A stretch of DNA of 63,976 bases, the filler included, from Hausera hauseri (taxonomy: Eukaryota), in assembly GCA_046269625.1 (NCBI GenBank). It is 12 parts of 12 records of this genome, joined end to end, with 100 filler letters (N's around TTAATTAATTAA, not from the genome) between each part and the next. Parts side by side here need not be neighbours in the genome. Positions count along the whole stretch, not along the records: positions 50,264 to 54,597 come from JBJURY010631108.1; 11 more parts are not named here. The stretch is one strand, 5' to 3'. Numbering within the stretch: the stretch's first letter is position 1; each line of letters opens with the position of its first letter. The notes beneath the pieces are model-generated. The model worked only from the letters and a program-made list of their open reading frames with translations. It was not told the origin of the DNA and searched no databases. Below are positions 13,901 through 54,697 of the stretch, one piece after another. The translations under genes and the position numbers were made by a program.

Positions 13901-14853
13901 CATGCCTTTTTCTTAACTATCCATTCAGGAAGCGGTGTGTAGGACATGCCTCTCATGGGAGAATACTTGTGCACATGCACAAGTAACCCCTTTATTGTTG
14001 CTAAAGTCCAACCGCACTTCTTGTCCTGGCTTTCTTCGGCTTCACGGATTAGCCTTGCATAGTCCTCTGTAATGAAATCCTTAATGTTAGAGGATTTCAA
14101 TAGTGGCCTGTTTTTTGTCTTGAAGGCTCTATTAGACAGCTCTCCTTTGACATTGCTGAAGGTGGATTTCAATATGAAGTTCATCTTAATGGCCTTTAGC
14201 TCCAACAATTTGCCCTGGAGAATTCCTGCTTCCTCTTCCCTTGAATATTCCAGGAAATCATGGAGCGATGTCTGTCCCACTGATGCTATGAAGTATCGCC
14301 GCACTTTGCTCTTCAGTGCATCTGCATCAACTGGCCGCTGTCTTTGGCTTTTTGATGGAGCATCTGCTGCTACTTCTGATAGGTGTTTTGGTCCGGCATC
14401 AGACATTGCTGATAAAGCAGTCTGTATAACTGGCTGTACTGCCAAAGCAGTATGCTGCTCATTAAATAGGACCTTCTTTGGCTTTAAATTGAAGTCTGTC
14501 AAATGGGCAATATGATATTTGTAAAACTGCATGTATTCTCCATCACATATAGCCTCACATCCAGGGCAAATATAATAGAGGACTCTATTGAATTTGTGTC
14601 GATAATAGCTCCTCATAGCATTGTGGCAATTCTGAGGGTTGTGTATTACACATGTGCAATACACATAAGAACTGCATCTTTGATTTTCCTTTGGCATGAA
14701 AGTCGTTATTGGCATATTCGTACTGAATATTTATTTTTTCGACTTGGTGAAGGAAATCAAGTACTGTTTATGGACATTGTAAAAGTCTTCATAATTGATT
14801 TGGCACACTACCTAACATGTATGGCATATATAATACTAAACTCTGTTGTACAT
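10975..14853 (-). pseudogene. Polinton/Maverick-type pPolB, copy 1 (N-terminal Zn fingers, EndoVII-like insert, exonuclease, polymerase); fragmented, 3'-truncated
   Basis: VVYCDFEA (Exo I), HNLSGY, RKGVFPYDY, YLDANNLY (motif A), [11 protein letters not shown] (motif B), YMDTDS (motif C) across ORFs 13783..14715, 12922..13740, 12610..12837, 12181..12498, 11139..12121, 10916..11134. Confidence 0.92.
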
Positions 14854-17774: not shown

Positions 17775-20700
17775 ACTGTCACAATACCATAAGGACCTAT
17801 TATGGCCACAAATTTAATAGGATCATTTATTATATCTGCCCAGGATGTGGGACTGTATGTGATGGAGAACACATAAAATTTTATGAAGATCACAAACATC
17901 ATTTGACTGACTTCACATCAAAGTCAAAGAAGATCATCTTTAATGAATATAAGCCTGCAGAAGTTCCACAGCCAGATGCAGCAGTATAGCCAGATTCAGG
18001 ACTAAAACGCACATCAGACCCATCAGGCGCATCAGGCGTAGAGACTCCATCAAAAAGCCAAAGATATAGGCCAGTTAATGCTGCAGAATTAAAGAGGAAA
18101 TGCCGCAAATATTTCATTGATGCAACTGCTCAAGCAACAATCAAGGAGTTCCTGGAGTACAGAGAGGAAGAAACAGTGGGAATTCTCCAGGACAACATAG
18201 CTAAGGTCAAGGACATTAAGGCTAATATGAAATTTGAGGTCATATACGTCAATGTTAATGACGAAGAGTCCAAAAGTGCATTAATGACCAGAAATAGGTC
18301 CTATTTTGAAGCCACCAATATAGTAGAATGGCTGCATGAAGAGTATGCGAAGCTGATCCGTGAAGCCGATGAGAGCCACAGTAAGAAGAGTGGATGGACT
18401 CTTGCAGCCATCAAGAGATTGCGTGTGTATGTGCACAGATTCTCTCCCATGCGGGGTAGTTCATATATTCTACCCTGATTGGATCGCTAATAAAAAAGCA
18501 TATGCCAGTGTCCATAATAATGACAACATGTGTTTTATGTATGCCATTCTATCAAATCTCGTGCCTGATCAACATAATGCTTCACGAGTTTGGCAATATC
18601 AGGATGTGCAGCACAATTAGACTTCCAATGTATCACATTCCCTCCATCCTTAGATGAAATTAAAAAGTTCAGCCGAATCAACAGCATATCAACCCACATC
18701 TTTGGATTGGATGAGGAGGACAAATTCTATCCCATGTAGATATATAATAATGAATTGGAAGATCGTAGGGATCTGCGCCTACTAGATTATGGGGAAAAGA
18801 AACATTATGTTTGGATCAAGAACTTTGAACGTCTAGTAAGATCCAAATTAACGAATCATTATGGCAAAATTGAGATATGTAAGCCATGCCTGTCTCATTT
18901 CAGTCTCAAGCTTGCAGAGCACAAGATGTACTGTAGCAACAATTATTGCGTAAGGCCAGAATTTCCCAAGGAGGATTACATTGAATTCAAGGAGTTTGAG
19001 AAGAAGATCAAGGTACCAATAGTTATCTATTGCGATTTTGAAGCGATTCTGCGTACAGTTCACAGCTGCACTCACAGTCCCGAACATAGCAGCACAACGG
19101 CATACCAATATAATGAACTCTCATCGTATTGCTTGTATGCAATAGGACTGGACTGTGAACCATTTCTATTCAGAGGACCAGGTACAGCAGCACATTTCAT
19201 GAAACGACTTGAAGGCATGACTCATAAGCTTGAAAACATGCTTCAGCAGCATAAGGATACAATGAGCATGTCGTAGAAACAAGAAGATAAATGACGCAAG
19301 GCAGCAACATGTTAATTGTCCTTCACCAAGGAAAATTATAAAGTTAAGGATCACTGCAATCTGCGTTGCAAAAAATGCACATACGTGCCTGTAGTGTTCC
19401 ACAATCTCAGTGGCTATGATTCCCATTTCATAGTACGAGAACTAGGCAACATTGATGGTAATATATATGTAATCCCAAACAATGAGGAGAAATATATCAC
19501 CTTCACTAAGCATGTTGGGAAAATCCGACTTCGATTCATAAACAGCTTTCATTTTGTGTCGTCTTAATTGGACGGTTTAGTGAAGAACCTCCCTGCAAAA
19601 GAACTCAAGTATATGAAGCGGTTCTACCCCACTACATTTGACCTCGTCAAGAGGAAAGGCGTGTTTCCTTATGACTACATAACTTCATGGGAAACACTGG
19701 ATGAGATATCATTGTCGACCAATAAGGACTTTTACAATATCCTCTCTGATTGCAATATCAGTGATGCTGACTACCATTATGCCCAGAACGTCTGGAATGC
19801 ATTGCAATGCCGAACATTAGGGGAATACGGCAGCATATACCTTAATATGGACGCGCTGCTACTGACAGATGTCTTTCAGAGTTTCAGGGATGTTACAATG
19901 AAGAACCATACATTGGATCCTACTCATTTCTTTACGGTTCCAGAGATGAGTTGGGCAGTTATGTTGAGATATAGTGGTATTAGGCTGCAGATCATTAATG
20001 ATTATGATATGATCCTTATGATCGAAAAAGTTATTAGAGGCGGAATATGCCAGGTCATTCACCGGTAGAGTGAGGTCAACAACAAGTATATGGCTCAGTA
20101 TGATCCATCCCAGGAATCCTCATACATATCATACCTGGATGCCAGCAACTTGTATGGATGGGCAATGAACGCCCCATTGCCATATTATAACTTCAAATGG
20201 GTCGAGAATCTTGAAAACATCCCTATATTGCACCTAGATCTCACTGGTGATACGAAATACATACTGTAGGTAGATATGGAATATCCGGCTTTGATCCACG
20301 CAAGGCAACAACAGCTGCCTTTCCTCTCTGAGAGCAGGCCTCCGCCCCATGGAAAGCAGAGAAAGCTGCTCTGCCATCTTGGTAGTAGGGAGAGGTATGT
20401 TATCCACTACATCAATCTCCAGCAGGAAGTTGGACATGTACTTCGTATTACTAAGATTTATAGAGCCCTGCAGTTCAAGCGGTCCATGTGGTTGCAATCA
20501 TACATAGATCTCCATACGAAGCTGCGGACAAATGTCGAGAACGACTTTGAGAAAGATCATTTCAAACTATATAATAATAGCGTTTTTGGCAAGATCATGG
20601 AGAATATCCGCAACAGGATGAACATTGAGCTATTATGTGACTGGAAGAGGGCCAAGAAGCTCCGTTCTAATCCTAACTTCCATAGCAGCAACATATATAC

Positions 20701-21329
20701 TTAGAACTTGGTAGGCATCCATATGCTGAAAACAGCATTGGTATTCAACAAGCCCATATATGTTGGTATGGCAATATTGGATCTATCAAAGACCCGAATG
20801 TACAGATTCCATTACAATATAATAGTCCCCCAGTTCAAGTCCATGCAACTAATGTATAAAGGATACTGATAGTTTCATCTATGAGATCCATACTGAGGAT
20901 ATTTATGAGGACTTTGCCCAATTGGCTCAACACATAGATACCTTGGACTATCCAAAGGATTATCCCAACTATTAAATTGCCAACAAAAATGTCCTTGGGA
21001 AATTCAAAGACAAGGTAAATTGAGCAATCATCTCGCGATTTGTAGCGCTCAGATCTAAAATGTATGCCCTAGATGTATGTGGCCAGATCAAAAAAAGGGC
21101 CAAGGGCGTTCAAAGGGCTACCTCATTCAAGAAGATCAGTTTTCAGGACTATGTGACAGTTCTGCAGGATAAGACTCACATCATAGCTGAAATGAAAAGG
21201 ATACCATCTAGGGATCATAACATATAAACAGTAACTCGCCATAAGAAAAGCCTAGATTGGATGGATGACAAGAGGCAGATCCTCAGCGACGGAATCAATA
21301 CACTACCTCATGGACATGTGGCATTGTAA
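17775..21329 (+). pseudogene. pPolB copy 2, near full length, many stops and frameshifts
   Basis: [75 protein letters not shown]; stop 21327-21329; AATAAA ~30 nt downstream. Confidence 0.92.
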
Positions 21330-21744: not shown

Positions 21745-23167
21745 GGCTACTGATAAACCCCATACATGATTTCTTACCAGATACAGAACCTTACATTGAC
21801 AGTGATAGTGACTATATAGTTATTATGTGAATGTTATTTAATACATGTTTTTTTATTATATGCTTTATATCTTACAAATAAAAACCAACTAGTTTTCATA
21901 AAACATTTACTTCGTAACAACATAACTTTGACATAACACTAAACATTTTTTAAAAGCGCAGTATGAACCATGTTCACGAAAAATACAGGTAATATTCTTT
22001 GGTATAGCTTACAATTTACCACATTCGTACGTACATATTCGCAGTTCCGGAAATGCGCTATTAAACAACTTCTTTCTTCCATCAACATGATTTATGACAT
22101 AGAACATAGATTCATTTATATCACATATATTTCAAATATCTCGCATAATGCAATCTATGCAGAACTGGGTATTATATTCACCACACGTCAGTTTATGATG
22201 ATGTCGGGTCAGGTAAGAATTGGTTGCTTGAGCCTTGCTCGTGCAACAATGCAGTGTAAGCCTAAAAATATAGCATAAATCACATGTACTATACTAAATT
22301 CACTTACGCAAATANNNNNNNNNNNNNNNNNNNNNNNNNNNNNNNNNNNNNNNNNNNNTTAATTAATTAANNNNNNNNNNNNNNNNNNNNNNNNNNNNNN
22401 NNNNNNNNNNNNNNATAATAACGGTTTTTCGATAAAACCTATAAAGTTGATTTTAGCACACAAACGAGTGGAAATCGAAAAATGTAAAAGCGTACGCACA
22501 CAGAAACTAACATGTGCTGTATCCCATTATGACATCAGATATTCGAAAACTCGAATACAAATCGAACTTTTGGAACAATTGATTTTCTTTATGAATAAAA
22601 GCAAAAATCGAAAAATCTAAAAGCGTAGACGGATAGAAACCCATATATGGAGAATCCGAATATGATGTCAGACATTCGAAAAGAGGCTTAAATAAAAAGG
22701 CCGATTTTTCTATCGAATTTGAATATTCGAATAATACCATCGGATTTCCTATGTCCGAAAACCTCTGTAGACCAAAAATTGGGTGTGCAAAGTATACACA
22801 AGTGTATGGAAATGAATAAAATATTGAAAAATAGGATAGTATTCGGTAAAGCATGCATTATTGGAACAATCTGATCACGCCATTCGATTGAATGAAAACC
22901 TATTTGGTGCCGACATGCATTTAATTTATTTGATGCATTAAAACAAAGTGCTCTAGAATGTTCGAAAAAATCCATAAATAATGCAGTATGCATTGATATG
23001 GCCATATGTTTCATTATTTCCAAAATCACTTCCACGAATGGCGAGAATTTTATTTGTGCTCCTCAAATAATTGGTTGATTTTAAATGTGCAATGTATACA
23101 AACAGTGCTGGACTCAAATCTACGGCCCGAAAATTGCCACAATATTATGTAGAAATACTTCACCCGT

Positions 23168-26100
23168 CTATACAACAGGGCTGAGTATTATATATGCCCA
23201 ACATGTGAGGTAGTGTGCCAGACCAAATATGAAGACCTTTACAATGCCCATAAACAACACCTGATTCCCTTCACCAAGTCGAAAAAACCAAGTACCAATA
23301 TGACAATAACTACTTTCATGCCGAACCAAAATCAGAGATGCAATTCGTACGCGTATCGCATATGTGCAATCTACAACCCTCAGAACTGTCATAATGCCAA
23401 GAGAAGCTATTATGAATATAAATTCAATAGGATCCCTGATTGGATCGCTAATAACAAAGCATGTGTCAATGTACATAATATCGATAACATGTGTTTCATA
23501 TATGCCTCTCTATCAAAACTCGTAACAGATCAAAATCATGCTTCACGAGTTTGGCTATATAAGGATGCGCAAGACAACTATGACATCCAATGTATCCAGT
23601 TCCCTCCATCCATAGATGAAGTTAAAAAATTTGGAAAAGTCAACATGTCCATCAATATCTTGTGGTTGGAAGAAGATGATAAATTCTATCCCCTGCAGAT
23701 ATGCGATAATGAATTGGAAGATCATATGGATCTGCTCCTACTAGGCGATGGAGAAAAGAAACATTATGTTTGGATCAAAGACTTTGAGCGGCTAGACAGA
23801 TCACAAATTACGAAACATCATTGACAAATAGAAATATGTAAACGATGCTTGTCCCATTTCAGCTGCAAGTTAGCTGTGGAGAAGCTGAAGGAGCACAAGA
23901 TCTACTGCAGCAACAGTTATTGTACCAGGCGAGAATTTCCCAAGGAAGATTACATTGAATTTAAGGAGTTCGAGAAGAAGATCAAGGTCCCAATAATTAT
24001 CTGTTGCGACTTTGAAGCGATCCTGTGTCCAGTTCAGAGTTGCAGTTCTAATACCCAACATAGCAGCACAACGGTATACCAATATTATGAGCTCTCATCA
24101 TATTGCATGTATACCAAAGGACTGGACAGTGAATCATATCTATTCAGGAGTCCAGGCGCAGCAGCACATTTCATGAAACGACTTGAAGATATGGCTCATA
24201 GGCTTGGCGATATGCAGCAGCAGCATAAGGATACAATGAGCATATCGAAGAAGCAAGAAGAAAAATGGTGCAAGGCAACAGCATGTTACTTGTGCTCCAA
24301 ACCATTCACTAAGGAGAATCATAAAGTTAGGGATCATTGTCATTTTACAGGACATTATCGGGGCGCGGCATGCAACAATTGCAATCTGTGTTGCAAAACA
24401 TGTACATATGTGCCTGTAGTGTTCCATAATCTCAGTGGCTATGATTCCCACGTCATTGTTCGGGAAGTGGGTAGCATTGAAGGAAACAGTAAGGTGATCC
24501 CTAATTGTGAGGAGAAGTACATCACCTTTACAAAGCATGTTGGAAAAATCAGGCTTCACTTCGTAGACACTTTCCGTTTCATGTCGTCTTTACTTAAGGA
24601 GACGAAGCGGTTCTTTCCCACCGCATTTGACCTCGTCAAGTGGAAAGGCGTATTTTCCTAGGACTACATAACCTCGTAGAAAACACTGGATCAGACGTCA
24701 TTGCTGGTCCAGAAGGACTTTAATAATATCATCTCTGATTGCGATATTAGTGATGCTGAATACCAGCATGCTCAGAACGTCTGAGATGCATTCCAATGCA
24801 GAACATTAGGGAAATACAGAGATACATACCTCAAGACGGACGTGCTGCTGTTAACGGATGTATTTGAGAGTTTCAGGTATGCTACAATGAAGAGCCATGC
24901 GTTGGATTCGGCTCATTTCTTTACAGCTCTGGAGATGAGTTGGGCAGCTATGCTGCACTATACAGGTATTAGGCTGTAGATTATAAAGGATTACGACATG
25001 ATCCTCATTATTGAGAGAGGCATTAGAGACTAAATATGCCAGGCCATTCACCGGTGTAGCAAGGCCAACAACAAGTCTATGGCCCAGAATGATCCATCCA
25101 AAGAATCCTCATATGTATCATGTTAGTTTCTGTGTGTACGCTTTTACATTTATCGATTTCCACGTGCTTGTGTGCTAAAATCAACTTTATAGGTTTTATC
25201 GGAAAACCGTTATTATTGATTAAAGCACACTTGCACATGTGCGATACATCTGAAAAGTGCTACATTGATGTATTAAGGCATGGGAAATTGACTGGTGCTC
25301 TCAGATTTCTCAAAAAAATTATGGGTGTCAAGATAATCAATACTATTCGTTAAAAGTCGATATTTATTCGAGTTGTGCACCGAATTTCAGTAATCTGAGA
25401 TGGGAGACCCGGGTTACAATATGGCACTTTCTATCTGTTCCCGCTTAAACATTTGTCAAATTTTGACTCCTTGGGACCAAAAAAAACTATCGGAAGTCTG
25501 CACCAATTGCACTTTGGATCGATATTATTCAAAATCCACTTTATCAACTTAAATTCGAATTGCACATTCACATAGTGCATTGTATTTTCAATATATTGCA
25601 CCAGGTGCCATGTACTAATCATCAATATTGGCAATATGGAAAACCGATATTATTGATTTTTGCATACTTGCACATGTGCTGCGCACCTGCATAGTGCAGC
25701 AGTTGATGTGCACTAATGTATACTATCGATTAGTACTTTGTCCCGATCGATTCGACCGATTACGTAATGTGCAGCTATCGATTTGTGAAATGTGCAAAAG
25801 TGTGCTTAGCGCCCTATTGCCATATGATAAGTGCAAGTGGGTCGAGCATTTTGAAAACACCCTTATACTGGATCTGGGTCCTAGTGGACATACGCGATAC
25901 ATACTGCAGGTGGACATGGAATATCAGGCTTCTATACACACAAGGCATCAACAGATGCCTTTCCTCCCTGAGATCAAGCCTCCACCGCATGGAAAGCATT
26001 GAAAGCTGCTCTGACATCTGGATAGTAGGGAAAGGTATGCAGTCAACTAAATAAATCTCTTGCAAGCTGTTAGACATGGACTCCGCATTACTAAGATCCA

Positions 26101-26963
26101 CAGAGTCCTGCAGTTCAGCCAGTCAATGTGGCTGCGGCCCTACATAGGCCTCAATACAAAGCTGCGGACAAATGCCAAGAACGATTATGAGAAGGACCAG
26201 TTCAAGCTTTACAACAACGTTTTTGGCAAGACCATGGAGAATATTCGCAACAGGATCAAAATTGAACTGGCCTTTAAATGGAAGTGGGCAAAGAAGCTCA
26301 TTGCTAAGTCCAACTTCCACAGCAGCACCATATATGCTGAGAACTTGGTCAGCACCCATATTCTGAAAACATGGCTTTAGTTCAACAATCCCATATATGT
26401 TGGTATGGCAATATGGACCTGTCAAAGACCTCGATCTACAATTTCCACTATGACATTATGATCCCCAAATTCAAGTCCATACAGCTGATGTATATAGATA
26501 CTGATAATTTCATCTATCACATCCATACTGAGGACATTTATGAGGACTTTTCTAAGTTGGCACAGCATATGGATACGTCTGACTATCCAAAGGAGCATCC
26601 CAAATATTCAATTACCAACAAGAAAGTCCTTGGGAAATTCAAAGACGAAGTGAATGGGACAATCATCTCGAGATTTGTAGCTCTTAGGTCCAAAATGTAT
26701 GCAATTGATGTATGTGGTCAGATCAAAAAGAGAGCTAAGGACGTTCAAAGGACTACCTTAGTCAAGAAGATCACTTTTGCGGATTACGTAAGAGTTCTGC
26801 ATGAACAGACTCACATCATGTCAGAGATGCGAAGGATCCAGTCTAGGACAGTAACATTGAGACAGTAACATTACGGAAGAAGAGCCTAGATTGGATGGAC
26901 GACAAAAGGCTGATCCTGGGTTATTGAATAAACACACTACCTCACAGGCATGTGGAATTGTAA
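23168..26963 (+). pseudogene. pPolB copy 3, with an N-terminal in-frame deletion and an insertion replacing motif A
   Basis: CYLC...KVRDHCHFTGHYRGAACNNCNL (EndoVII/HNH-like), ICCDFEA, KLYNNVFGKT, YIDTDN, LRSKMY; stop 26961-26963. Confidence 0.92.
25121..25810 (-). repeat. Inverted copy of the element's own 5' flank inserted in pPolB copy 3
   Basis: 25121-25216 is the near reverse complement of 22415-22512; ~25500-25810 is the reverse complement of the 16540-16830 unit. Confidence 0.8.
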
Positions 26964-27961: not shown

Positions 27962-30900
27962 TGATGTTCCATTGTCCTTAGGAAAGTCTGTAGATATTCT
28001 AAAAACAAATCTTCCTCTCTTCATTATTTCATTGAGTGTGGGGAATTTAAATAATGAATTTACTCCTTTTCTGAGTGTAGTGACTTCGAATAGAGCAACT
28101 GTTTTCAGTCTTCGTAATGGATAATAATAAGGCAACTGAATGTGGGCTAAATAAGGATACCCTGACATTAATTGAACGCACTCAACGTGTGTGCTAGTAA
28201 TCAAAAAACAGGCGTCATTTGTATTTTCCAATGTGACAATAAAGTCAGGATCTGGCGAACTGAATATTACGCGATCGGATCTTACTTGTACATAAATGTC
28301 CAATGGTCTAAAGGAAATAAACTAAATGCGTTCTGGGGCTTGCCTTATTCCTGCTATTAAGTACGGAATTTGATTATTAACCGAATAATGAAAACTGCTT
28401 AACCAAAAGGTATTTCGACAAGATGATTGCAATTGCAGCGTAAGAAGTATCTGCCGATTATCCTGTTTCGTGCATGATATTGAAGGTCGGGGCTTGTGAC
28501 CTCTACATTATAAAGTTCGTCAGTATATTGTTTCGCGGCGCATGAAAGAGAATAACTGACTCTACTGATTCGTGGTGCTTTTACTAAAACTCCCTTGTCA
28601 TTAAATATCTTTGCTCCAATTCGTTTATTATCTTCAACTGAAGGTGTACACGGTATCATTGGTGCTTTTCCTTCTATTCCAGTTACCGTACGTTGCCATA
28701 TACCATTTACAAGACGAAACATGGCGAATATTAATGAATATTCTTGGTTAGGTCGTGTATATATGCAAGTCGATTGATTATGTTCTCGGAAATAGTAAAC
28801 ATTATTTTGTTCAAAGGTTGTATCAGCATATCGTGTGGTTATTATCATTATTCTACCTTGTGGAATCTTCCTATCCCATTCAATTTGTAGGCATGGCTTT
28901 TTATAATCGGGTTGGCCTATAAACACTCTTTCTTCTAAGAATGATCTCTCAATTTTGGTTAACTCTTTCTGTTCGGGTGAATTGTCCATTAGAGATAACA
29001 TAACTGTTTTTGGTTTTAACGGTATCATTATTTTGAATGTTCGATCTTCATAGAGGGGTGAATTTTTATCCTTTGACATATGAATCTGCACCGAATAAAC
29101 AGTTCCATGCACAACTTTACAACAATTTTCCCCATATGAGGACGTAGTCGTACATAGCATTCTTTCTTCTCTATACAATGTTAACGTTCCCCAATTTTCG
29201 TTTATTGTTTTATTACTATTTATCCCAATTCGTGGATTGAGGAATCTCAGGGATAAGCAATTTCTTGTGTGATTATATTGAATGTACAGATCTCCTGGAG
29301 TAATACCTTGCATATCCCATGGTTCTATTTTTGGAATTCTCTTCAAATATTTCATGAAATCCGAAAATGTATTCGATGATAATTGAGTAAATACATTTGT
29401 TGTTTTCATTGAGCTTACAGTTGGCTGTGTAAATGAATCTGGTATGCAACAGACCAATATACCCATTGGTAATAACATTCTGTGAGGTTTTGAATCATGT
29501 TTAATCCGTGACAGTTGGGTTTGGACAGGTCTTTTAGTTTGTCGGTGGCTTTTAACGTATAGTAATACTACCCATATTAATACAAAAATGAGAATGACAA
29601 TGGGTGCAACAATTATCAGTAACAGATATCCATCATCCTGTTTTGTTGTCATAATGAATGTTTGGTTCTTCACTAATATCTTATTTTCGTCTGGTATTGC
29701 TTGCCGTTCTATATGGACAACGAGTCGTTTACCGGAAGTAGTTATATGACATAATGCTATTGTTTTTCGTTGGTGTATTATCCGTACGATGTAAAGACAT
29801 TGGGGTTTGAGACTGTAACAACTAATAGATGTATCCTTAAATAGTGAGCATTTGACTGTATCATCATCAAATGATATCATGTAATTGTTATTAGGGAAGT
29901 TAAATTTGGCATTTCTGTCATTTACTTGATAGGAAATATTCAAAGGAGTAAATCGAACCATCTGAATATGTTCAGGAAATTGTAGACCGTCGTAAGATAC
30001 ATGTAATGGCGAATTGAGAGTATTGAAATAAATTGTACTGATCCAAAACATATTGGGACATGGAGATAGTAATTGTAAGGTTAATAGTATTTGTCCGTCA
30101 TTACCTGGTACACAGATTCCTGAGGGTTCCACACTGGAATATTCTATATTATAATCCTCATCATTTGTTAACTTTGCTGTGCATGTTATAATGTTAGTGA
30201 CATTTTCTACTCTGGGGGTAATTCTCATTATTTCGTTGGAATTATCTACATCTGCATTTATTGGTCGATCATATTCAGGTGTTAGGCGACATTCATCATT
30301 ATTTTCTTTAATGGGTTCGTCTACTTTTATTCCTGTTCTAATTAGTTTGATAGTTGTTATTTCCGTAGGTATCGTAACGAAAATAGTTCGCTGGAAGGTG
30401 ATATAATGACCAAATCCATTTGTTCCCATGGTGATCTGATATAATTGAAAAGTAAGAGAATAAGTGTATCCTTGAGTAACCAAACAACATTTATTATCCT
30501 TTAGTTCCTAATGCACAACGCAAATAGGTCTATTTTCTTCAAACATTGTTATTGCTTCCCTTTCTTGTCCATTCAACCCGCTTACATAGGTTATCATTAA
30601 GCATTTTCTCTTGGAATTATAGTAAATTGAAAAAACTTTAAACACAAATCGACGATTGTTATTCAAATCCAAACTTGCATTTTCTAATAATTTCGAATAG
30701 TCTTGGTATACGGTATACAACTCCTGCTTTTGGTCAAAATTTGAGATCAGGGTTTGATTCAAATGAGGTGTAGCAGTTATTCGTGCCAAAACATTGGTCA
30801 TGCATAGTGTTAATACACATGAAAATAAAGTCATTCTTCCAAACTGCGGTTGTATACTCTGATATTGTTGGCTTATTGAATCACTTTCGACATCTTGTTG

Positions 30901-32003
30901 ATTATCCAGTTCACAAATATATTTGTTCGCGATGGGTTCCGTACTTACTGTAGAATTCATCTCCTGACTATTTTCGACGAACTGAGCATCTACCGCAAGG
31001 TTTGAGTTATTCAATTCAATGGGACTTACGTCGATGATATCGTCTTCTTCTTCTTCTATTACTGGTTTTAGGCTAAATTTATCCTCTATGGTAGGTTTTG
31101 GGAGGAGTTCAAGCAATTTGTCGATATTCTCTTCCATTCTATTCCAAGCTTTTTTATCTCTGGTAGGTCCTCTGAATTTCTTTTTTTTCTTAAATAATGC
31201 TTTATATTAATCGTATGCATCGACATTTCTATCAAGTACCACTGGTAGGGCAATTTGGTCGACAATGCTGCTCTTTGCGGTATTTTAGCTAAATATTTTA
31301 TTAAATATGCCTCTTCTCCAGGTAATAAATCCACTTGGGTTAGTCCTAAATAAGCCATCACCCTATTAATCCATCTGGTGTCATAAACTACTTTACTATC
31401 TATCCCGTATTTTTGAGCAAGCAAGTCTATTCTCTCATCGTGTAATTGTACTGAACGATAGTAAATTTCCAGCGTGCTGGCTTGTGTTAAATTAATTATT
31501 TCTTTATCGGTTATTCTTATTCCCTTAGGTTGATCCTTGTTTCTGTTGAAACTATAGAAAAGAATCTTTATCATGTATTGTCGAACTTCTTCTGTATCCA
31601 AATCAGGTGCCAGTATAAAGTTATTGATATAGAAATAATCTACAATTCGCTGTAATATACTCTGTTGGTGGTATTCATTATCACGATAAAAGGAGGTGAC
31701 ATATTGGCTTTTAATCCATGCTACAACACTATGGGATATATTAAGGTGGTCTGCCCCTAATTCCCATAACACTTGGTATACCCACCTATCCATTTCTGGA
31801 GTTGGTTCAGATAGGGCCTCTAGACTCTTGTATAAAAGTCTAGTACAAGTAAGTCTACTGTGAGTTATCTTGTTTACTGGTGTCAAGGTATCTAATAATT
31901 TAATCTTACAACATCTTAGGTTTGGTGTATTAGGATTTTCTTCAGCACTGATTCCTCTGTTAACCAAGATATCTGAGTAATTATCGAAACATCTTCTCAT
32001 CAT
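27962..32003 (-). pseudogene. Intronless virus-like polyprotein (>1300 codons): helical N-terminal region, then two signal-peptide-led ectodomain units with FnIII-like motifs separated by a TM helix
   Basis: ORFs 31086..32003, 30508..31137, 28399..30483 and 27962..28303 join through a frameshift near the T8 run 31181-31188, an in-frame stop at 30508, a frameshift near 28450 and a stop near 28325; TM YLLLIIVAPIVILIFVLIWVVLLYV; clear internal duplication. Confidence 0.7.
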
Positions 32004-32103
32004 NNNNNNNNNNNNNNNNNNNNNNNNNNNNNNNNNNNNNNNNNNNNTTAATTAATTAANNNNNNNNNNNNNNNNNNNNNNNNNNNNNNNNNNNNNNNNN
32101 NNN

Positions 32104-33265
32104 CGGAAAACGTTATTCAAATGAAACGCATACGAATGCTAGGTCAAGAGAAGAGGTAATAGAACAATCCACATCAACGATATTAATATCAGATGCACAC
32201 GGGTTGAAATTTATTAGAAAAGATATGTTATCACGTTGCGATGTAGTTATATATGCCACTAACTACGAAGCATTTTTTGTAGCAGAAAAAGAAATCGATA
32301 TGAAAACGTATGATTTAAAAACACAGGATGTGAGGATCGAAGACTACCTCAAAAACCGAGACGACTATTTCTATTACAAAGGTCAGACCGGAATAGCGGA
32401 ATTATATTACAAAATGATAACAAATGACTGCAGATTAGATACTGAATGCATGCGAACCAAACTAGCTTTAATTTACGCTAACTCAGAATTAGCATCACCA
32501 ATTATACTAATTAAAGTAAGCGTTTTCGGACGGGTTACCGGAGAAGTACTATTAACCTACAAATGCGAGAAAAGAGATGTGCCAATCAACGTAGAAGAGA
32601 AAAGATGCATGCAAAAATTACCGGTCATCTATGAGAATATGCCGAGATTACAAGGCCACTCACTCGCGTATTATTGGCAAACTCTACCGAACCGACGATA
32701 CTGAAGGAATGTTAAACGAGTCTAAGTGAACCAATGTTTCGACGTAGCAGTACAGACTGGATAAGCTTACCGAATGGAGGCTCTGCTGCAGCCCCTAGTA
32801 AGCTAACGGGAACTAATTTAATGAAAGAATTATCTGAGGAAAAATTCGAGGACACGGCTAACAAAGGAATTGATAGACCAAAAGATATAGAAGCTTTTAG
32901 ACAATTTCTAGAGTTTCCACGACAGAGAACATATAAACGGAATAAAGCTATGTCAATGGTCATGTACGATACTCGTTTTCAAGCAAAATTGGAGTCATTA
33001 CTTGGCGCTAATCACTACCAGAGGGTAACATCAGAAATACTATATAAAATCTGGAGAGGATTTTTAATTTTTGGACAAGTTGCATCTGGATTTTTAGCCA
33101 TCTACTTTTTAGTCTAACTAATTAAAGCAGTAATTTAAGCCATTATAAACGGGTATGAAACATTCACATTGACAGGATTCTCTTGTAAAATTTTAACCGC
33201 ATTCATCACACAATTTGAAAAGATGCTTAAAGCGTACGAAGAAAAAACCGATGGAAAAATGATGT
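32104..33265 (+). pseudogene. env: Chuvirus/gB-type (class III) envelope glycoprotein, C-terminal half
   Basis: RCDVVIYATNY, DYFYY...NDCRL, FGRVTGEVLLTYKC, RCMQKLPV, FLEFP, then membrane region KIWRGFLIFGQVASGFLAIYFLV; pattern recalled from chuvirus-like glycoproteins. Confidence 0.8.
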
Positions 33266-33929
33266 AGAACGCCATGTCGGATATTATAATCGTAAACGAC
33301 GAGGCAGACCCTCGATTCTTAATAAATGCAAAAATAGAAAGACAATAGTATGGAAAGACGACTCAGGTGATGACGAGCCTAAGGGAGGAGAAGTAAATTC
33401 CAGAATGAGGATACACAAAATATACTCAGTAATTAACACATCATTGCCTATCATGCCACCAACAGCGCCAATATATGAAGACTGTGACCATAAATCGATC
33501 ACATACTGTCGATCAGAAATCTATCAAAAGCCTATTAATTATGAGAATCCTTATGAGAAGACAAAACAATATGGAGTACTTCGGAAAATGAATGTTATCA
33601 ACCAAGGACCAACAGAAAACAACCACGGAATATTATATTCAGAAAGGATACCGCGCCACATAGAGCCGAAATCAACAATCTGGGAGAACCCAAAAATGTG
33701 TCCTATCTCGGGTTCACTACCCCAGGAACCTCTCATTGACAGTCGTGTTACTGAAATAACAAATAACAATTTATATCCGAATGGAGAATTAAGACAATTA
33801 AGGCAAGATATCATTTCATCGCCAGGAATAACAATAAATGGACATAGAGTCTACTATGAAGCAGTCAAAGATAGCCTAAAATTGCTACAGGACAGTAGCA
33901 AAAGGAAGACCTTTCGCCAAAATACACAC

Positions 33930-36394
33930 TGAAGATTGGGAAGTATATGCATTAATCGACACCGAATCAGAAAAATCATTTATAAAATATGAATCTATAC
34001 CAACCACATTGCGAGACCAGTTATGTCCGCCCGCCCCATCGCACCCAGGTAGCATAGGAGCATTTGGACAAGTACCGAGGCCAAAATTGAAATGGACTCC
34101 TACTGTGTATATGATGGGCCAAGCACTTCAACATGAATTCGCGATAATGGATCAGTTAACAGACAATGTAGTACTAGGTTGCGACATACTGAAGCAAATA
34201 CCAGGGATGGCAATTAATGTGCATAGTGGAAAATTAATTGAGCTCGAGCCAATAAAAGGGACAAAGGCAATAAAGGAAAGGAAATCAGGCGAAGTATGGA
34301 TTCCGGTGGATGAGGACATTCCGCCTAGAACCGAAATGATAATATTTGCACAAATTTGACAGGACGAGGACCTACCAGTATATTTCGAGCCTCAAGAGAA
34401 TATTGATCCAAATCTTATGTTTAACAATATTCTATGTAGAGTAATGACGGGACAAATACCTATCAGACTAATGAATAATGCACCAATTCCCGTAAGATTA
34501 CACGCTAGAACTACTTTAGGTCACACTTACAGAATATCGGCAGTAACAATAGAGGAGAAACCATACAAGTGTGCCGAATTTCCACCTCACGTGGAGCCCA
34601 AATTCTCTCCCGAAGCGTATTGCAAATTCTACGAATTATTGTGTAAATTCCGTTCGATAATAACGCAAAACGAAGAAGACATAGGTAGAGCAGGGGCTCT
34701 AAGATTAACGATTCCATTGAGGAAAAAACCCGGCTCAAATGACGAAATCGATCTAGAAGAACAAAAAATGTTCAAATGGTACGCGCCTCCTCACTCATTG
34801 AGACCGAAGATAACTAAAGAGGTAGAACGAATGTTAAAGGCCGACATAATTCGACCAAGTTATCGATCATGATATTCACCTATACTTATGGTTAAGAAGA
34901 AGGGAACTACAAAACATAGATTTTGTATAGATTATCGGGCACTAAAAACGATAATAATGAAAGACGCATTTCCCTTGCCATCGGTAAATAAAGCTTTAGA
35001 CAGACTATCAGGAGCAAAATGGTTTACCACTCTCGACTTACAATCGGGATACTGGCAGGTAGAAATTGAAGAAGAAGATTGATATAAAACAGCGTTTAAA
35101 ACACATGATGGCGTATACGAATTTAATGTTATGCCTTTTGGCATCACCACCAGCCCAGCTATTTTTACTAGAATGATGAATAAGATGCTCATGGGACTTG
35201 ATCATGCATTTGCATACTTAGACGACGTGATGATAGCATCAAGAACGGAGGAGGAACACTTAAAGGACATTGAAGATACACTCATGCGGCTAGAACAAGT
35301 AGTTCTAAAACTAAAATCAAAGACATGTAAATGGGCATAGAACGCAGTATCGTACCTCGGACACCTAGTTGGAGAAGGAGGATCAAAACCGCATAAATAA
35401 TTTTTAAATAAAGTATCCGATTGTATGCAACCGCAGAATCAAAAAGAGTTAAGACACTGGTTAAGCCCATATGGATATTATGTCACTTATGTACCAGACA
35501 ATTCAAAAATGAACGCACCACTATATCGCCTACTCAAAAAAGGAACGAAGTGGAGATGGACAGAAGTGCAACAAAACCAATCAACGAAATGAAGAAAGTT
35601 TTGACAACGAACCAGTTTTAAAATACCCGGATTTTAACCTACTATTCATCATTAAAACAGATGCAAGTAAAGAAGGCATAGGATGAGAATTAACTCAGAA
35701 ACGAGAAGAAGAAGAATTAGAACATCCCATAGCCTATGGAGGACGTTCATTAAAGAAAGCAGAAAAGAATTATTTAGTTAACGAATTGGAAACGTTAGCT
35801 GTAAAGGAAGCACTACGACACTTTAATGTCTACGTCTATGGACAAAAGATTATCATAGTTACTGATCACAAAGCAGTTACAACATTGAAAGGACAAGCTA
35901 ATAATCCAACATGCAGATTAAACCGTTGGATTGAAGAAATCTCACGATATAACATTAAATTTCAATACAAACCGGGTAATAAACACGTTGACGCCGACGC
36001 ACTGTCAAGATGAAAGACAAAAACGAGTGCAATCACCACAATAAAAAAGCCACAACTCGAACAGCTGATCGAACGACAAAAAACTCTAATATCGAATAAG
36101 ACAATTAGAATTACAGCGGAGCAAGCGAAAGATACGGTCATTCAGCAAATTATTGAATTCGTACAAAACGACAAAATGCTAAAAGGACGGCAACTGAAAA
36201 AGCATTTACAGAAACACGGACGTAAATATCGCGCATCAAACCTAGATAACATCCTGTATTACAAACGGAACGGAAGAAGATTAGTAGTCATTCCAAAAGG
36301 ATTACGCACCGAAGTACTCATGGCTGAACATGACTCGTATTTAGCTGGACACATGTTGTGGAAGAAGCCATTGGAAAGAATATTAAATAAATAC
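33930..36394 (+). pseudogene. pol: Ty3/Gypsy pol (protease-RT-RNase H-integrase N-terminus), decayed
   Basis: ALIDTESEKSF (protease, ~33950), VVLGCDIL, RFCIDYRAL, LDLQSGYWQV, YLDD, TDASK, TDHK, DADALSR, integrase Zn-finger start EHDSYLAGH. Confidence 0.92.
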
Positions 36395-50263: not shown

Positions 50264-50301
<38 letters not shown>

Positions 50302-50309
50302 AATGATGG

Positions 50310-50340
<31 letters not shown>
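50264..50340. repeat. (GAT)n microsatellite
   Basis: About 25 GAT units with two variants. Confidence 0.97.
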
Positions 50341-50404
50341 ACATTCGCCGGATGATATTTACGTTATCACTTTAGCCCAGTGTTTTGTACGTGTCCGAAT
50401 CCAG

Positions 50405-51274
50405 TCAAATAGAAGCCAATAGTTGTTTACGGTCTCCGCCAACATATACAGGTTCGGTTAGATCCGTTAAAATATTGATTCGATGTAATGCTTTGTAGGG
50501 ACATGGTTTGTGTTTAGCGACAATGGGCCGTCCGCCGTGGCCGCCGCCGGTTTGACCAAATTCTCGTTTCTTAAAACCCAGATTCCGTGCCAATAGTTCA
50601 TCAAAGGCAAAATATGTAACATTATCACGTAATATAAACGAAATACGACCATTAGAGTTTAATTCAAATGTCTTGAGAGTCAATTTATCTACTGCCTTGA
50701 TGGTTGCGCAAAATTCTGTTTCCGTTTCCGTAAGAAAACCAGTGCCTGTTGTATGCGAGTAAAAGAATGATTCAGTCTTTTGCCAGTTCACTCTAATATC
50801 GGTAGTTTTCATGGAAAAGTTCAATTTTTCACTAATTGTACCATGTCCATCGAACTGTAGACCTTTCGAGCGCATACTGACAGATTGAAAACTCCATGCC
50901 TGAGCGTCGGCTAGTGATTTAAATTGAAATTCAATCGTATGTTTGTGTTTTAGCACCAATCGATTGTTTAAATGAAAAATATAAACTGGGAAATATTGCC
51001 GTTGGTAATTGCGAACGTGAAATGTTCCATTAGAGTCTTGGACTAACTGAAAACGACTAGATTCAGGAGATTGTCTTACTAAAGTATAGTATATTCCATT
51101 GTTCTCACGTATTTTTATTGGTGAAAATGTAAACGTAAATTCCGCCAAAGCAACTTCCCAGGCTCCCTGGCATAAGTCGAGCGGCTGGTCCAACGCCATG
51201 GTAAACCGTTCAGCGGTATTGTTGTTGTCATGTTCTGATAATGTGTTACTATCAAGTATTAAATAAATGCTCAT
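50405..51274 (-). CDS. Polinton/adintovirus minor capsid protein (penton), probably C-terminally truncated
   Basis: N-terminus MSIYLILDSN...NTAERFTMALDQPLDLCQGAWEVALAEF and C-terminal INILTDLTEPVYVGG...LL match Maverick penton patterns. Confidence 0.8.
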   Translation of the reverse strand: MSIYLILDSNTLSEHDNNNTAERFTMALDQPLDLCQGAWEVALAEFTFTFSPIKIRENNGIYYTLVRQSPESSRFQLVQDSNGTFHVRNYQRQYFPVYIFHLNNRLVLKHKHTIEFQFKSLADAQAWSFQSVSMRSKGLQFDGHGTISEKLNFSMKTTDIRVNWQKTESFFYSHTTGTGFLTETETEFCATIKAVDKLTLKTFELNSNGRISFILRDNVTYFAFDELLARNLGFKKREFGQTGGGHGGRPIVAKHKPCPYKALHRINILTDLTEPVYVGGDRKQLLASI

Positions 51275-52293
51275 TACCCATTCTGCGATGCAAATATCCA
51301 ACTCGGTGTAGTGTATCCGTGCCACTTGATAAGATATTGTTTATTCGAACCTTTGCCGCGTGAACGTAGAATTTCCTGAAGACGATACACATCAGATTTT
51401 TCCGGTAGTACTTGCAGTTCCTATTTCGTCAAGTATTTCGTCACCATTTTCATCATCTAAAACGTACATAACAGGTGTTTGTTTTGTGTTGATTGCCGAA
51501 ATGGGGAAAACCTCGTCGCTCCAGTTCTGATTGATATTCTTAATGAATGGTGTCGTACTCAGCTTTGAAATACGTACATAATCACCGATTTTATACTTGG
51601 AACGACGTTTAGTTGGTCGTCGTCGTTGTCGGTTTTGATAAAGCCACATGTCCAAATCATCGATTACGTCAACCTGCCATAATCCATTGATGCCACGGTG
51701 TGATTGTACGCATGAATAATATCCGTCAGTACATCTATCCAGCGTTTGTTGCCTTGCTTCGTAAAGAATTTGTTTAGGCGACCGCGCAATGTTCGATTAA
51801 ATCGTTCAACGAGTGCCGCCTTGTATTGGGAAAACACCGAGTAGTGGTTTACGCCGAACCGTTTCAAAACCTCTGCAACGTAGGCGTTGTTGAATTCCTT
51901 ACCCAAATTTGTTTGTAAATGCTTCGGCGGCTGTTGTTGCATCAGCAGTGTCTGAACAGCGTAGGGCATTATCCTACCGGATTTAGATTTCACAGCAATT
52001 GCACGTGCAAAACGGCTAAACAAATCAACACATATCAGCACGTACCAATACCCATCGTTGATGCTGGCGTACGGAATCATTTCCATCACATCCATTTGCC
52101 ATACATTATTTACACCGGCAGCACGGTGTGCACGAGTTGAAAACCGCCTTCTTATCGGTTTGTTTATGCTGTATGCTAACTATTTCCCGAGCCAACTTTG
52201 GGTCTGTTACCGAGTCTGTTTGACAGTCTTTGCTAGTTTGTTGACGCCAGTATATCCGACGGAATAACGCAGGTCGAACCACACATTGCTCAT
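51274..52293 (-). pseudogene. int: Polinton rve integrase with C-terminal chromodomain
   Basis: QMDVMEM, VDLFSRFA, LQTNLGKEF (catalytic D to N), VERFNRTL, KIGDYVRISK, YLIKWHGYTTPSWI; frameshifted. Confidence 0.9.
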
Positions 52294-52436
52294 CGTTGCC
52301 GCGATGGTGTTGGTTTTGCTCGCATTACAACAATTTGAACGAAACGTAAATGAAAGATTCGGCAAACTGGGACAGAAAGATAAAAACCATGCACCCATAT
52401 CGCCGAATCATTATATACTTACCGTCATTGTTCATA

Positions 52437-52800
52437 CTATGATGTTGTTGCAGAACCAATGAGTCCACCCAGTAATGACGTGTCAATCGATAGAATTGCA
52501 CCAAGGAATCCGCCGTCTTCCTGGTACATGACCTCCCGTTTAAGTCGTTTACTACTGGCGTTGGCAAGGCCAATGAGTCGTTTTCGATACTTTAGTAAAT
52601 TCTGCTTTTCACTACAAAATGTCAACCTGACCCACAACGATATTGTAAAATTTCCATCAAATCGTCTACTAGAAACTGCGGGAATGATCGTAACATATTT
52701 CGCTTATGTCTCGTAGGTGCCTTGAGCAAAACAATAAAGTACGGCTGACTATGTGTGAATCGCATGTTTTTTTGTGGATGTATTAATACTGCTGATGATG
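52437..52800 (-). pseudogene. Polinton small basic virion/core protein with C-terminal GGFLG amphipathic segment
   Basis: KQNLLKYRKRLIGLA...KREVMYQEDGGFLGAILS; a Q-x-GGFL motif is typical of these Maverick ORFs. Confidence 0.65.
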
Positions 52801-52824
52801 AGATTTAGTTATTTGTAACCGTTG

Positions 52825-53007
52825 TCAGTGTGACGGTAATTTGCGTCTAGTTGCTGCTTTTGTTGTTCGAAGCACCGAATTGATTAATCGCTTCACTGTA
52901 GCGGCGCTTCTTTTTGATACACGTTTTTTGCCATCGGACACCCGCTTGCTAGTAGGTTTACGTTTAACAATTGTTTTTCGGAAATTCTTTATTTTTATCA
53001 TAATCAT
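52825..53007 (-). CDS. Small highly basic protein, possible DNA-condensing core protein
   Basis: 60 aa, K/R-rich, co-oriented directly downstream of the ATPase. Confidence 0.45.
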   Translation of the reverse strand: MIMIKIKNFRKTIVKRKPTSKRVSDGKKRVSKRSAATVKRLINSVLRTTKAATRRKLPSH

Positions 53008-53051
53008 GTCGTCGATTTTCGAATTTGTTTATAGACACATAGACCACCTTT

Positions 53052-53663
53052 CTAATTAAAAATATCTGTTCGTACACGCATGTCGTCGGGACACTCTTGT
53101 GTAAAGTCAATAAACAGATATCCATGCCGTTTGTTCGTAGCACCAGGATATGTATCTATCAAGTAGGCTCGATTGTGAGGAAATGCTTGTCGTGCAACAT
53201 AATCAATGATAGTCAGATCACGGGGATTTTTAAACAACACCAGATAGTGTACGTTTAGATTTCTTGTTCGATGCTTTCCGCCCTGATGGAACATGTTTTG
53301 CGTAATGAAAATAACCGTTACGCCACGGTGTCGTGCAATCATCGTAAAGAGGTTGTTGAAGTCGGATTGTTTCGCGGCTTCCTGAAATAAATCGTCGATG
53401 GCAATAACGTCACCGTTGCGTAATCTCTCTGACCAGTTTTCATCATACCCTTCAATTACCGTTATGGATTTCAGTTTACACAATTCCCAATGTGTCAAAC
53501 CGGACTCACCATCATCACAAACACCCTGATGCCAATATATGTGATTGTGTCGCAGTAAATGGAACATTTCACGGTAGTTCTGCAATAGTTTACACATAAA
53601 GTGTGTTTTGCCACTTCCACTAAGGCCTACAATCTGGAAAATGGCGTCATTCTGCACCTTCAT
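53052..53663 (-). CDS. Polinton A32/FtsK-like genome-packaging ATPase
   Basis: Walker A GLSGSGKT, Walker B VIAIDD, ARHRGVTVIFITQ, VLFKNPRD, GYLFID, RVRTDIF. Confidence 0.92.
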   Translation of the reverse strand: MKVQNDAIFQIVGLSGSGKTHFMCKLLQNYREMFHLLRHNHIYWHQGVCDDGESGLTHWELCKLKSITVIEGYDENWSERLRNGDVIAIDDLFQEAAKQSDFNNLFTMIARHRGVTVIFITQNMFHQGGKHRTRNLNVHYLVLFKNPRDLTIIDYVARQAFPHNRAYLIDTYPGATNKRHGYLFIDFTQECPDDMRVRTDIFN

Positions 53664-53697
53664 CTAATAATACAACCTTTCCTCATCACATGATTTG

Positions 53698-53743
53698 TTT
53701 ATAATCGCTTTACATACGCGCATATAAATAGTTATGGTATAAA
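53698..53743. promoter_or_regulatory. Putative bidirectional TATA promoter
   Basis: TATAAA on the minus strand at 53698-53703 near the ATPase ATG; TATAAATA at 53723-53730 and TATAAA at 53738-53743 ahead of ATG 53757. Confidence 0.5.
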
Positions 53744-53756
53744 CACTGTTTCTACA

Positions 53757-54230
53757 ATGATAGCTAATATCAATTATCGCTATGTTACCGAGTGTGACAT
53801 TATTAGCACACTACCTTTTAATCCGTGGAAGCCAAGGCAGTATGTACTCCAGTGTCCACCGGATTTTACATGCATCGTATTTCAATCGGAAAAGTGTCGT
53901 ATTATAGGCTGTCGCAAACTAATCACAGCAGACAACAGTAAACTGCTGCCATTCGGAATTGTCATTGACAAAATCCAATCAATAACGGTAACGACTCAGT
54001 TAGATTACCACCAAACAATCAATCTGTACAAATTAGCAATGGCCGCTACTACTGAATTTACGTATAAACCCGAACTATTTCTTGTACTGAGACTTACATC
54101 ATTTCGCCCAATTTGTGTCAATGTGTTTAACACTGGAAAAATTGTTGTACTCGGTATTCGAAGTGGACTATGAACCTATTATTAATCAAATTAAAAATCA
54201 CATAAATGTTTTACTGAATTACAATAATGT
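53757..54230 (+). CDS. Divergent TATA-binding-protein-like gene; last helix displaced by a frameshift near 54165
   Basis: Two TBP half-repeats: IANINY...FNPWKP...TCIVFQSEKCRIIG and KIQSIT...INLYKLA...YKPELFLVL...VNVFNTGKIVVLG (TBP: YEPELFPGL...LIFVSGKVVLTG). Confidence 0.8.
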
Positions 54231-54697
54231 ACATTGCACAACAACAAACTATAAATACCATTCCCATGCCCAATCAGACATTACTGCCATGGAAGACGAC
54301 GATAACGACAAAACAATTCTACTTAATGATGCCAATGATGATGAAAGTTCAGATTGGTCGTGGTTGTTTGGCTACAACAAAAAGGACGATTCTAATGTCA
54401 GTGATGGAACCACCTGTCCGACAATTAGAAAAACCGGGTGATTGTCTGCAGGCCGATTGTCTGGAAACGAAACAGGAATTTGCTCAGAAAGCAGCAGCAG
54501 CAGCAGCAGCAAAACCAACGTTAAAAAGGCAAAATTCAATGATTGGAATACGTAAACGAAAATCAAAACCGTCGTGCCAAACACAAACATTTTTACCNNN
54601 NNNNNNNNNNNNNNNNNNNNNNNNNNNNNNNNNNNNNNNNNTTAATTAATTAANNNNNNNNNNNNNNNNNNNNNNNNNNNNNNNNNNNNNNNNNNNN

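Follow-up and report, generated by a model that had tools for sequence, protein, structure and literature searches.

The window analysed here is a 63,976-nucleotide stretch of the Hausera hauseri assembly (GCA_046269625.1) in which short contigs are chained by N-linkers, and the finding reported is confined to one of them, a 4,334-bp contig at positions 50264-54597. [quoted passage not shown] This mini-TBP probably acts as the late-gene switch of the element, reading a variant TATA-type box (YATAAACR) for the packaging and putative capsid genes. The initial annotation, which had proposed a Polinton module carrying its own TBP-like gene, is supported in its interpretation.

The PF00352 profile matched the ORF with 38.3 bits against a cut-off of 22.9 (E-value 1.2e-9), a match that covers repeat 2 alone (residues 72-136), and scored 40.6-65.2 bits in intact relatives, with two Pfam stretches in two of them (L012 and L029). 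An AlphaFold model obtained from 51 relatives reached a pLDDT of 91.6 and retrieved 44 PDB matches at E<=0.001, all of which, among the matches listed, were TBP chains. The alignments with PDB TBPs extended over 155-161 columns and both lobes, with TM scores of 0.66-0.77 and 20-25% identity. Repeat 1 is assigned because the model aligns with TBP over both lobes; the two half-repeats described initially are therefore recovered, the second by PF00352 and the first by structure, and the fold comparison suggested as a check returned TBP. The nearest proteins, P0001 and P0002, are 70-73% identical to the window TBP.

The ORF had been described as intronless and about 150 codons long. No intron is needed to read it, in agreement with the first part of this description, while its in-frame length is 138 codons, the frame breaking ahead of the last helix. 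This helix, correctly noted as out of frame, lies at about 54166-54213 (+) in a six-frame reading, and is similar to the C-terminal ends of P0001 and P0002. The observations that three of the four DNA-intercalating phenylalanines are kept (F42, F108 and F124) and that repeat 1 is shortened also stand.

Linkage, selection and origin of the TBP family

Sequence searches with a threshold of E<=0.001 returned 162 clusters (built at 50% identity) related to the ORF, a few low-ranked ones being cellular-type TBPs, and an alignment-based scan located 50 metagenome loci together with one contig in a bacterial metagenome-assembled genome (MAG; L051). These 51 loci, designated here by L numbers, were searched by tblastn with query proteins from L012, L029, L046 and L051. 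The linkage to Polinton genes predicted in the initial annotation was recovered in this collection of metagenome loci and one MAG contig, as at least one hallmark gene was present at 25 of the 51 loci (17 of the 22 loci of at least 3 kb and 2 of the 19 shorter than 2 kb; L030, one of the 25, is counted on its penton candidate alone). The packaging ATPase was found at 17 loci, the integrase at 12, the putative major capsid protein and the protease at 10 each, the putative penton at nine and the protein-primed PolB (pPolB) at four. Pfam matches underpin the identification of the ATPase, integrase, protease and pPolB, including PF03175 (protein-primed PolB) in L012 and L046 and PF00770 (adenain-type protease) in L029 and L051. 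The double and single jelly-roll capsid candidates had no family or PDB-sequence match, and the names major capsid and penton, founded on size and position, are used here as putative. In L012, L046 and L051, the TBP occurs together with pPolB, integrase, ATPase and putative capsid genes. At most loci it lies 5' of the ATPase in the same orientation; in L029 and L051 it comes after the capsid-protease block, and in L028 and the window it is divergent from the ATPase. L051 is a near-complete TBP-bearing Polinton, and its binning into a bacterial MAG likely reflects eukaryotic contamination.

In a set of 54 pairs at 62-99% identity, which are not independent of each other and two of which are saturated, the dN/dS ratio was below 1 for each of the 52 that could be estimated (median 0.20); codon substitutions thus indicate that the family is under purifying selection. 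In the phylogenetic reconstruction (58 rows chosen from 244 dereplicated sequences, with no TRF2/TBPL1 rows and few divergent giant-virus TBPs), the 31 family rows formed one side of a branch (support 100/98) and 19 short forms a subclade (99/98), both placed outside the canonical eukaryotic TBPs in the best tree (99/97), with P0219 as the sister row. Within a tree that lacks TRF2/TBPL1, the family thus appears as a clade of its own rather than nested among host TBPs. Nevertheless, joining the family with six animal TBPs was not rejected by the approximately unbiased (AU) test (p 0.082), with which an old origin from an animal TBP would be compatible. The initial claim of a divergence too great for a recent host retrocopy is consistent with the 20-25% identity and the separate clade, an old animal-TBP origin not being rejected.

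These results bear on the idea that the gene is a host TBP retrocopy, or was carried along by chance and does nothing for the element, which we consider hardly tenable. The broken state of the window copy and the AU result would fit it; against it stand the low identity to cellular TBP, the independent clade, a dN/dS of about 0.2 and the maintenance of the TBP across elements of differing gene order. Linkage and selection together largely refute this idea.

No confirmed relative of the TBP or of the ATPase was found in IMG/VR, and none in the phage collection searched. Scans for giant-virus TBPs gave zero loci with two single queries and five with an alignment, mostly cellular-like.

The YATAAAC box and a candidate late-gene switch

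Box counts were made after the removal of 13 near-duplicate or TBP-fragment loci, of gene fragments and of starts with less than 150 nt upstream. YATAAAC occurs on the sense strand in 60 of 70 upstream regions of virion-module genes from eight unrelated gene families, compared with 1 of 70 on the antisense strand and a mean of 4.0 (maximum 13) in 200 dinucleotide shuffles, the two highest-ranking 7-mers in these regions being ATAAACA and TATAAAC. Of the 20 elements, 19 have the box, and in each of the 11 with at least three scored genes it precedes no fewer than two thirds of them. It also lies ahead of all 14 scored ATPase genes. All 64 copies have a purine as the base 3' of the box; 60 of them begin with T or C and one with A, and in the late upstream regions TATAAA is followed by C in 49 of 65 cases. 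Among the five longest TBP elements the box precedes 38 of 55 ORFs, versus 2 of 68 in eight TBP-less elements, where it precedes 1 of 31 hand-picked virion-module-like genes and A/T-rich canonical words are seen instead. These controls are pPolB-related elements with no TBP match in their available DNA, two of the records having been searched whole.

It appears very improbable that the box serves the upstream gene as a variant poly(A) signal, or that it arises as a side effect of protein conservation. TATAAA and CATAAA are indeed minor poly(A) signals, and half of the copies (32/64) lie within the upstream gene, several near its end. However, 16 of these 32 in-gene copies sit 60-114 nt ahead of the gene end, where cleavage would therefore cut the reading frame; a first base of T or C, almost never A, also speaks against this explanation, as do the 32 copies outside known genes and the box ahead of the window's ATPase gene, which lies head-to-head with the TBP. 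In addition, codon choice is constrained: near a late start, 18 of 27 Ile-Asn codon pairs spell the box, versus 14 of 96 elsewhere (p 3.6e-7).

The TBP genes themselves mostly lack the box. Upstream of 34 of them, it was found at two, canonical TATAWAW at 20, an initiator-like word at 28 and CCAAT at 11, the last three being counted without a shuffle control. In the window, a canonical TATA-like box at 53723-53730 (+), 34 nt ahead of the TBP start, is a candidate host-read promoter. A further word, TGTTTWA, is found upstream of 12 of the 34 TBP genes, mostly ones without canonical TATA (both occur in two); the loci include L002, L004, L005, L018, L030, L034, L036, L038, L041 and L042, and its spacing to the initiator-like word varies.

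The protein anatomy was scored in 31 locus TBPs (dereplicated at 80%, window included). The three intercalating phenylalanines are present in 31/31 and the N-lobe loop-3 phenylalanine in 0/31. On the DNA face, Asn occupies yeast position 205 in 31/31, Ser replaces the C-lobe Asn in 30/31, and at least 90% of alignment A1 has Cys at yeast position 203. The altered-specificity mutant TBPm3 is changed at three residues, among them V203 and L205 (PMC1636458). Concerning partner surfaces, the Glu pair binds TFIIB and a basic N-lobe patch binds TFIIA, TAF1, Mot1 and Brf1 in the available text of Ravarani 2020 (PMC7221094). The family has the TFIIB-binding Glu at C.L3.2 in 29/31 and at C.L3.4 in 31/31, while the median length of its N-lobe H1 region is 10 residues versus 18 in cellular TBPs and that of its H2 region 20 residues, with 3 K/R, versus 32 (32-33) with 8 in eukaryotes. 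L043 and L046 retain near-full N-lobe helix-region lengths, and the short form therefore looks derived within the family.

From the fold, the family, the linkage, the selection and the strand-specific box, we infer the following sequence of events for the late-gene switch. The host machinery would transcribe the TBP gene early from its canonical TATA/initiator promoter; the mini-TBP would then bind the variant box, aided by its changed DNA-face residues, and its kept acidic stirrup would recruit host TFIIB, and hence Pol II. The loss of the N-lobe helices would free it from TFIIA, TAF1, Mot1/BTAF1 and Brf1, and the packaging, core, capsid, protease and integrase genes would be expressed together. 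A viral factor steering Pol II, as initially suggested, is supported by the variant box, with the difference that its target is likely YATAAAC and not a plain TATA. The stronger version of this proposal, in which the smallest kind of two-lobed TBP performs an early-to-late switch for a widespread Polinton lineage, its re-specified saddle reading YATAAACR and engaging host TFIIB and Pol II directly, without any other viral factor, while escaping the host TBP regulators, is one on which our sequence comparisons leave us evenly balanced.

Several points weigh against the late-gene switch. The elements are incomplete; the loci on which the box was counted are those in which it had first been spotted by eye, and their homologous upstream regions are related. 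The Tyr/His-Lys codon test gave 10/15 versus 17/38 (p 0.22, not significant), for some boxes the distance to the called start is 7-17 nt or exceeds 100 nt, and a conserved initiator is missing 3' of the box in the virion-module upstream regions. Canonical TATA is missing at 14 of the 34 TBP genes, and the window's own TBP gene carries a YATAAACR copy (53738-53745, +), 19 nt ahead of its start, atypical as this is for the family. As controls, the TBP-less elements are mostly partial and distantly related, their major capsid being 20% identical, and TBP and lineage are therefore confounded. Finally, according to the title of PDB 1qn3, there is a crystal structure of wild-type TBP on a C(-25) TATA variant, and host TBP can therefore bind such a box. 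These last two points favour the view of the box as a weak TATA variant for host TBP, the element TBP topping up the pool, competing at host promoters or titrating TFIIB as a decoy, a role for which the kept Glu pair is equally suited. We nevertheless regard this view as unlikely, given the prevalence of C after TATAAA (49/65) and the A/T-rich canonical words of the TBP-less elements, the family-wide changes of the DNA face at known specificity positions, and the general absence of the box ahead of the TBP gene itself.

Slightly less likely still is an orthogonal system, as proposed for giant viruses, in which the mini-TBP reads the box but partners with an element-encoded TFIIB-like or other viral factor. 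In the portion of Ravarani 2020 available (PMC7221094), almost all TBP-bearing viruses also have a TFIIB and C.L3.2 is conserved in about 40% of viral TBPs. The incompleteness of the elements and the conserved ORFs F2, F9 and F10, which have no known family, leave room for such a partner. On the other hand, no Pfam TFIIB match was found in the 81 proteins scanned from these incomplete elements, nor one above the cut-off in the assembly of L051, and the host-type Glu pair (29/31 and 31/31) differs from the viral pattern.

The Hausera contig and its surroundings

Divergent from the TBP in the window is an A32-type packaging ATPase (53025-53663, -), whose ORF stops at 53052 while the homology continues past one stop. 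Its start (ATG at 53663, -) is separated by 93 bp from the TBP ORF, exactly as first annotated; it matches Pox_A32 just below the cut-off (E-value 1.4e-4) and is, with that single stop, 67% identical to the ATPase of L032. A YATAAACR box at 53696-53703 (-) lies 40 nt ahead of the ATPase start, and another at 53026-53033 (-), at the end of the ATPase gene, precedes a short Lys/Arg-rich open frame (52828-53028, -) that is core-protein-like from its make-up alone and for which tblastn gave no match in 50 loci. It is followed by a core-like gene read in three frames (52485-52765, -), whose relatives weakly match Adeno_PX (PF05829, E-values of 0.011-0.05 in three of them), and by an rve integrase with a chromo-type tail (51295-52308, -; three frames, two stops), matching rve just below the cut-off (E-value 1.8e-7) and 52-62% identical to L032. 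The L012 relatives of the ATPase and the integrase pass the cut-off, and the L012 integrase is intact. The last gene, a putative penton (minor capsid protein) at 50408-51325 (-), is without the C-terminal part of its relatives and is 23% identical to that of L032 (E-value 2.6e-17); no Pfam, NCBIfam or PDB-sequence match was found, its model (pLDDT 48), of too low a quality for an assignment, had weak minor-capsid matches, and no box is left ahead of it. Therefore, the ATPase and integrase of the initial annotation are borne out, under the cut-off, by Pox_A32 and rve, while the name penton is unverified. pPolB and the adenain-type protease are absent from the 4.3-kb contig and present in relatives. 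Over the whole window the box is not enriched (21 copies versus 15.0 expected, 6 of 100 shuffles being as high), as would be anticipated where contigs are unrelated.

Comparison with intact relatives shows decay spread over the whole copy, which had passed unremarked, and some near-invariant positions of the family TBP are changed in the window TBP. The window copy is unlikely to be functional; on the sequence evidence, we take the feature as real, this copy as decayed and the family as functional. In sequencing run X1, which may be the source, 33,932 contigs align to the stretch and cover 30 of 30 bins, 4,207 of them at a likeness of at least 99% and 19,882 below 95%, a depth that gives no copy number. 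At the TBP frame break, most of the contig depth is without that break. This pattern fits many diverged copies. No RNA run was listed among the sequencing runs as a carrier of the sequence.

Downstream of the TBP, at 54250-54597, a canonical TATA-like box is followed by an acidic low-complexity reading over two frames that runs off the contig and has no family match; a downstream Baculo_LEF-3 match was weak, under the cut-off, and was rejected. In the relatives, the families F5 and F3 lie upstream of the TBP (L001:1-722, L004:2374-3082, L005:1140-1838, L008:989-1698 and L016:1103-1835). Words resembling splice donors and acceptors separate the two, which suggests that they are exons of a single gene; F3 gave weak Atlas leads (<0.9) to the viral single-strand DNA-binding families Pox_I3 and DUF2738. 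F2 (L012:9591-10052 and relatives, 18 loci) is a conserved protein of 155 aa with an acidic motif and Cys/His residues, without Pfam or PDB-sequence match, which often adjoins the TBP and sits behind the box; it may be the 'MAEL' class of Starrett, a guess from the label. Accessory genes at L012:222-719, L022:1918-3327, L032:1710-2168 and L046:7016-7876 comprise a ubiquitin-conjugating enzyme, a leucine-rich repeat protein, a RING finger and a KilA-N protein.

Other contigs of the window, which have no physical link to the Polinton contig, carry Tc1/mariner-type and reverse-transcriptase genes, a content that would point to an animal host. Three other contigs (11139-14730, 17990-20704 and 23153-26868) contain, by eye, decayed pPolB-like genes in many pieces, which may or may not belong to the same element. 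At 28399-32051 (-) and 32060-34872 (+), one contig has long ORFs (702, 232 and 321 aa) of unassigned kind, and the next has a gag/protease-like retroelement set.

Comparison with cellular and viral TBPs

The family resembles the cellular TBPs of eukaryotes and archaea in its saddle fold, in three of the four intercalating phenylalanines and in the acidic C-lobe stirrup, and differs from them in its size of about 150 aa, its short N-lobe H1/H2 regions, the missing first N-lobe phenylalanine, the Ser in place of the C-lobe Asn (30/31) and the Asn at yeast 205. Relative to a canonical TBP, the full set of four phenylalanines is thus lacking and the C-lobe Glu pair is present at the family level, while the basic N-lobe helix 2 of canonical eukaryotic TBPs is absent, being near full length just in L043 and L046.

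Among the elements, the relatives share with Polintons/Mavericks, adintoviruses and MELD viruses the pPolB, rve integrase and packaging ATPase, as well as an adenain-type protease and putative capsids. The initial annotation had placed TBP outside the standard Polinton gene set, and our search, which covered subscription journals thinly, found no publication on a Polinton TBP family or its box. Nevertheless, 'TBP' stands among the MELD-virus gene labels in the Fig. 5 legend of Starrett 2021 (PMC8502044). In the available parts of that article it is a legend label alone, with no family, structure or promoter box described, and the text of the Fig. S2 maps of animal adintoviruses has no TBP label; this label may or may not mark the present family. 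The question bears on how Polintons control their capsid genes and on whether they run a viral cycle, and a dedicated TBP with a matching box would make this regulation testable by gel shift and reporter assays. If the switch is real, it would be evidence for a true lytic programme in TBP-bearing Polintons, and a natural minimal TBP of altered specificity would aid in dissecting the surfaces needed for initiation.

The TBPs of Nucleocytoviricota are likewise viral, divergent and, in the accessible text of PMC7221094, without the N-lobe basic signature; BFVD fold matches to these homologues had 9-22% identity. In contrast to the Polinton family, which keeps the Glu pair, theirs is variable and they are usually accompanied by a viral TFIIB, while the available Polinton-element DNA showed neither a TFIIB nor an RNA polymerase gene. 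The family would therefore contrast with the published pattern of viral TBPs losing their host-TFIIB contacts, as given in that portion of the source.

In its proposed role, the family resembles the vTBP of beta- and gammaherpesviruses (KSHV ORF24, EBV BcRF1), another viral TBP that goes together with a non-canonical TATA variant and that, in the sections available, serves late genes through a TATT promoter with host Pol II (PMC7498053; PMC12529657). That protein is described in the accessible part of PMC12529657 as large and binding Pol II directly inside a six-protein complex, in a model incompatible with TFIIB binding. The Polinton protein is, in contrast, a bare core of about 150 aa with a TFIIB surface, and its box is YATAAAC. 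By these resemblances it is an analogue of the herpesvirus system, not a member of it, and, if our reading is correct, it would represent an independent invention of the vTBP strategy and a natural orthogonal TBP-promoter pair.
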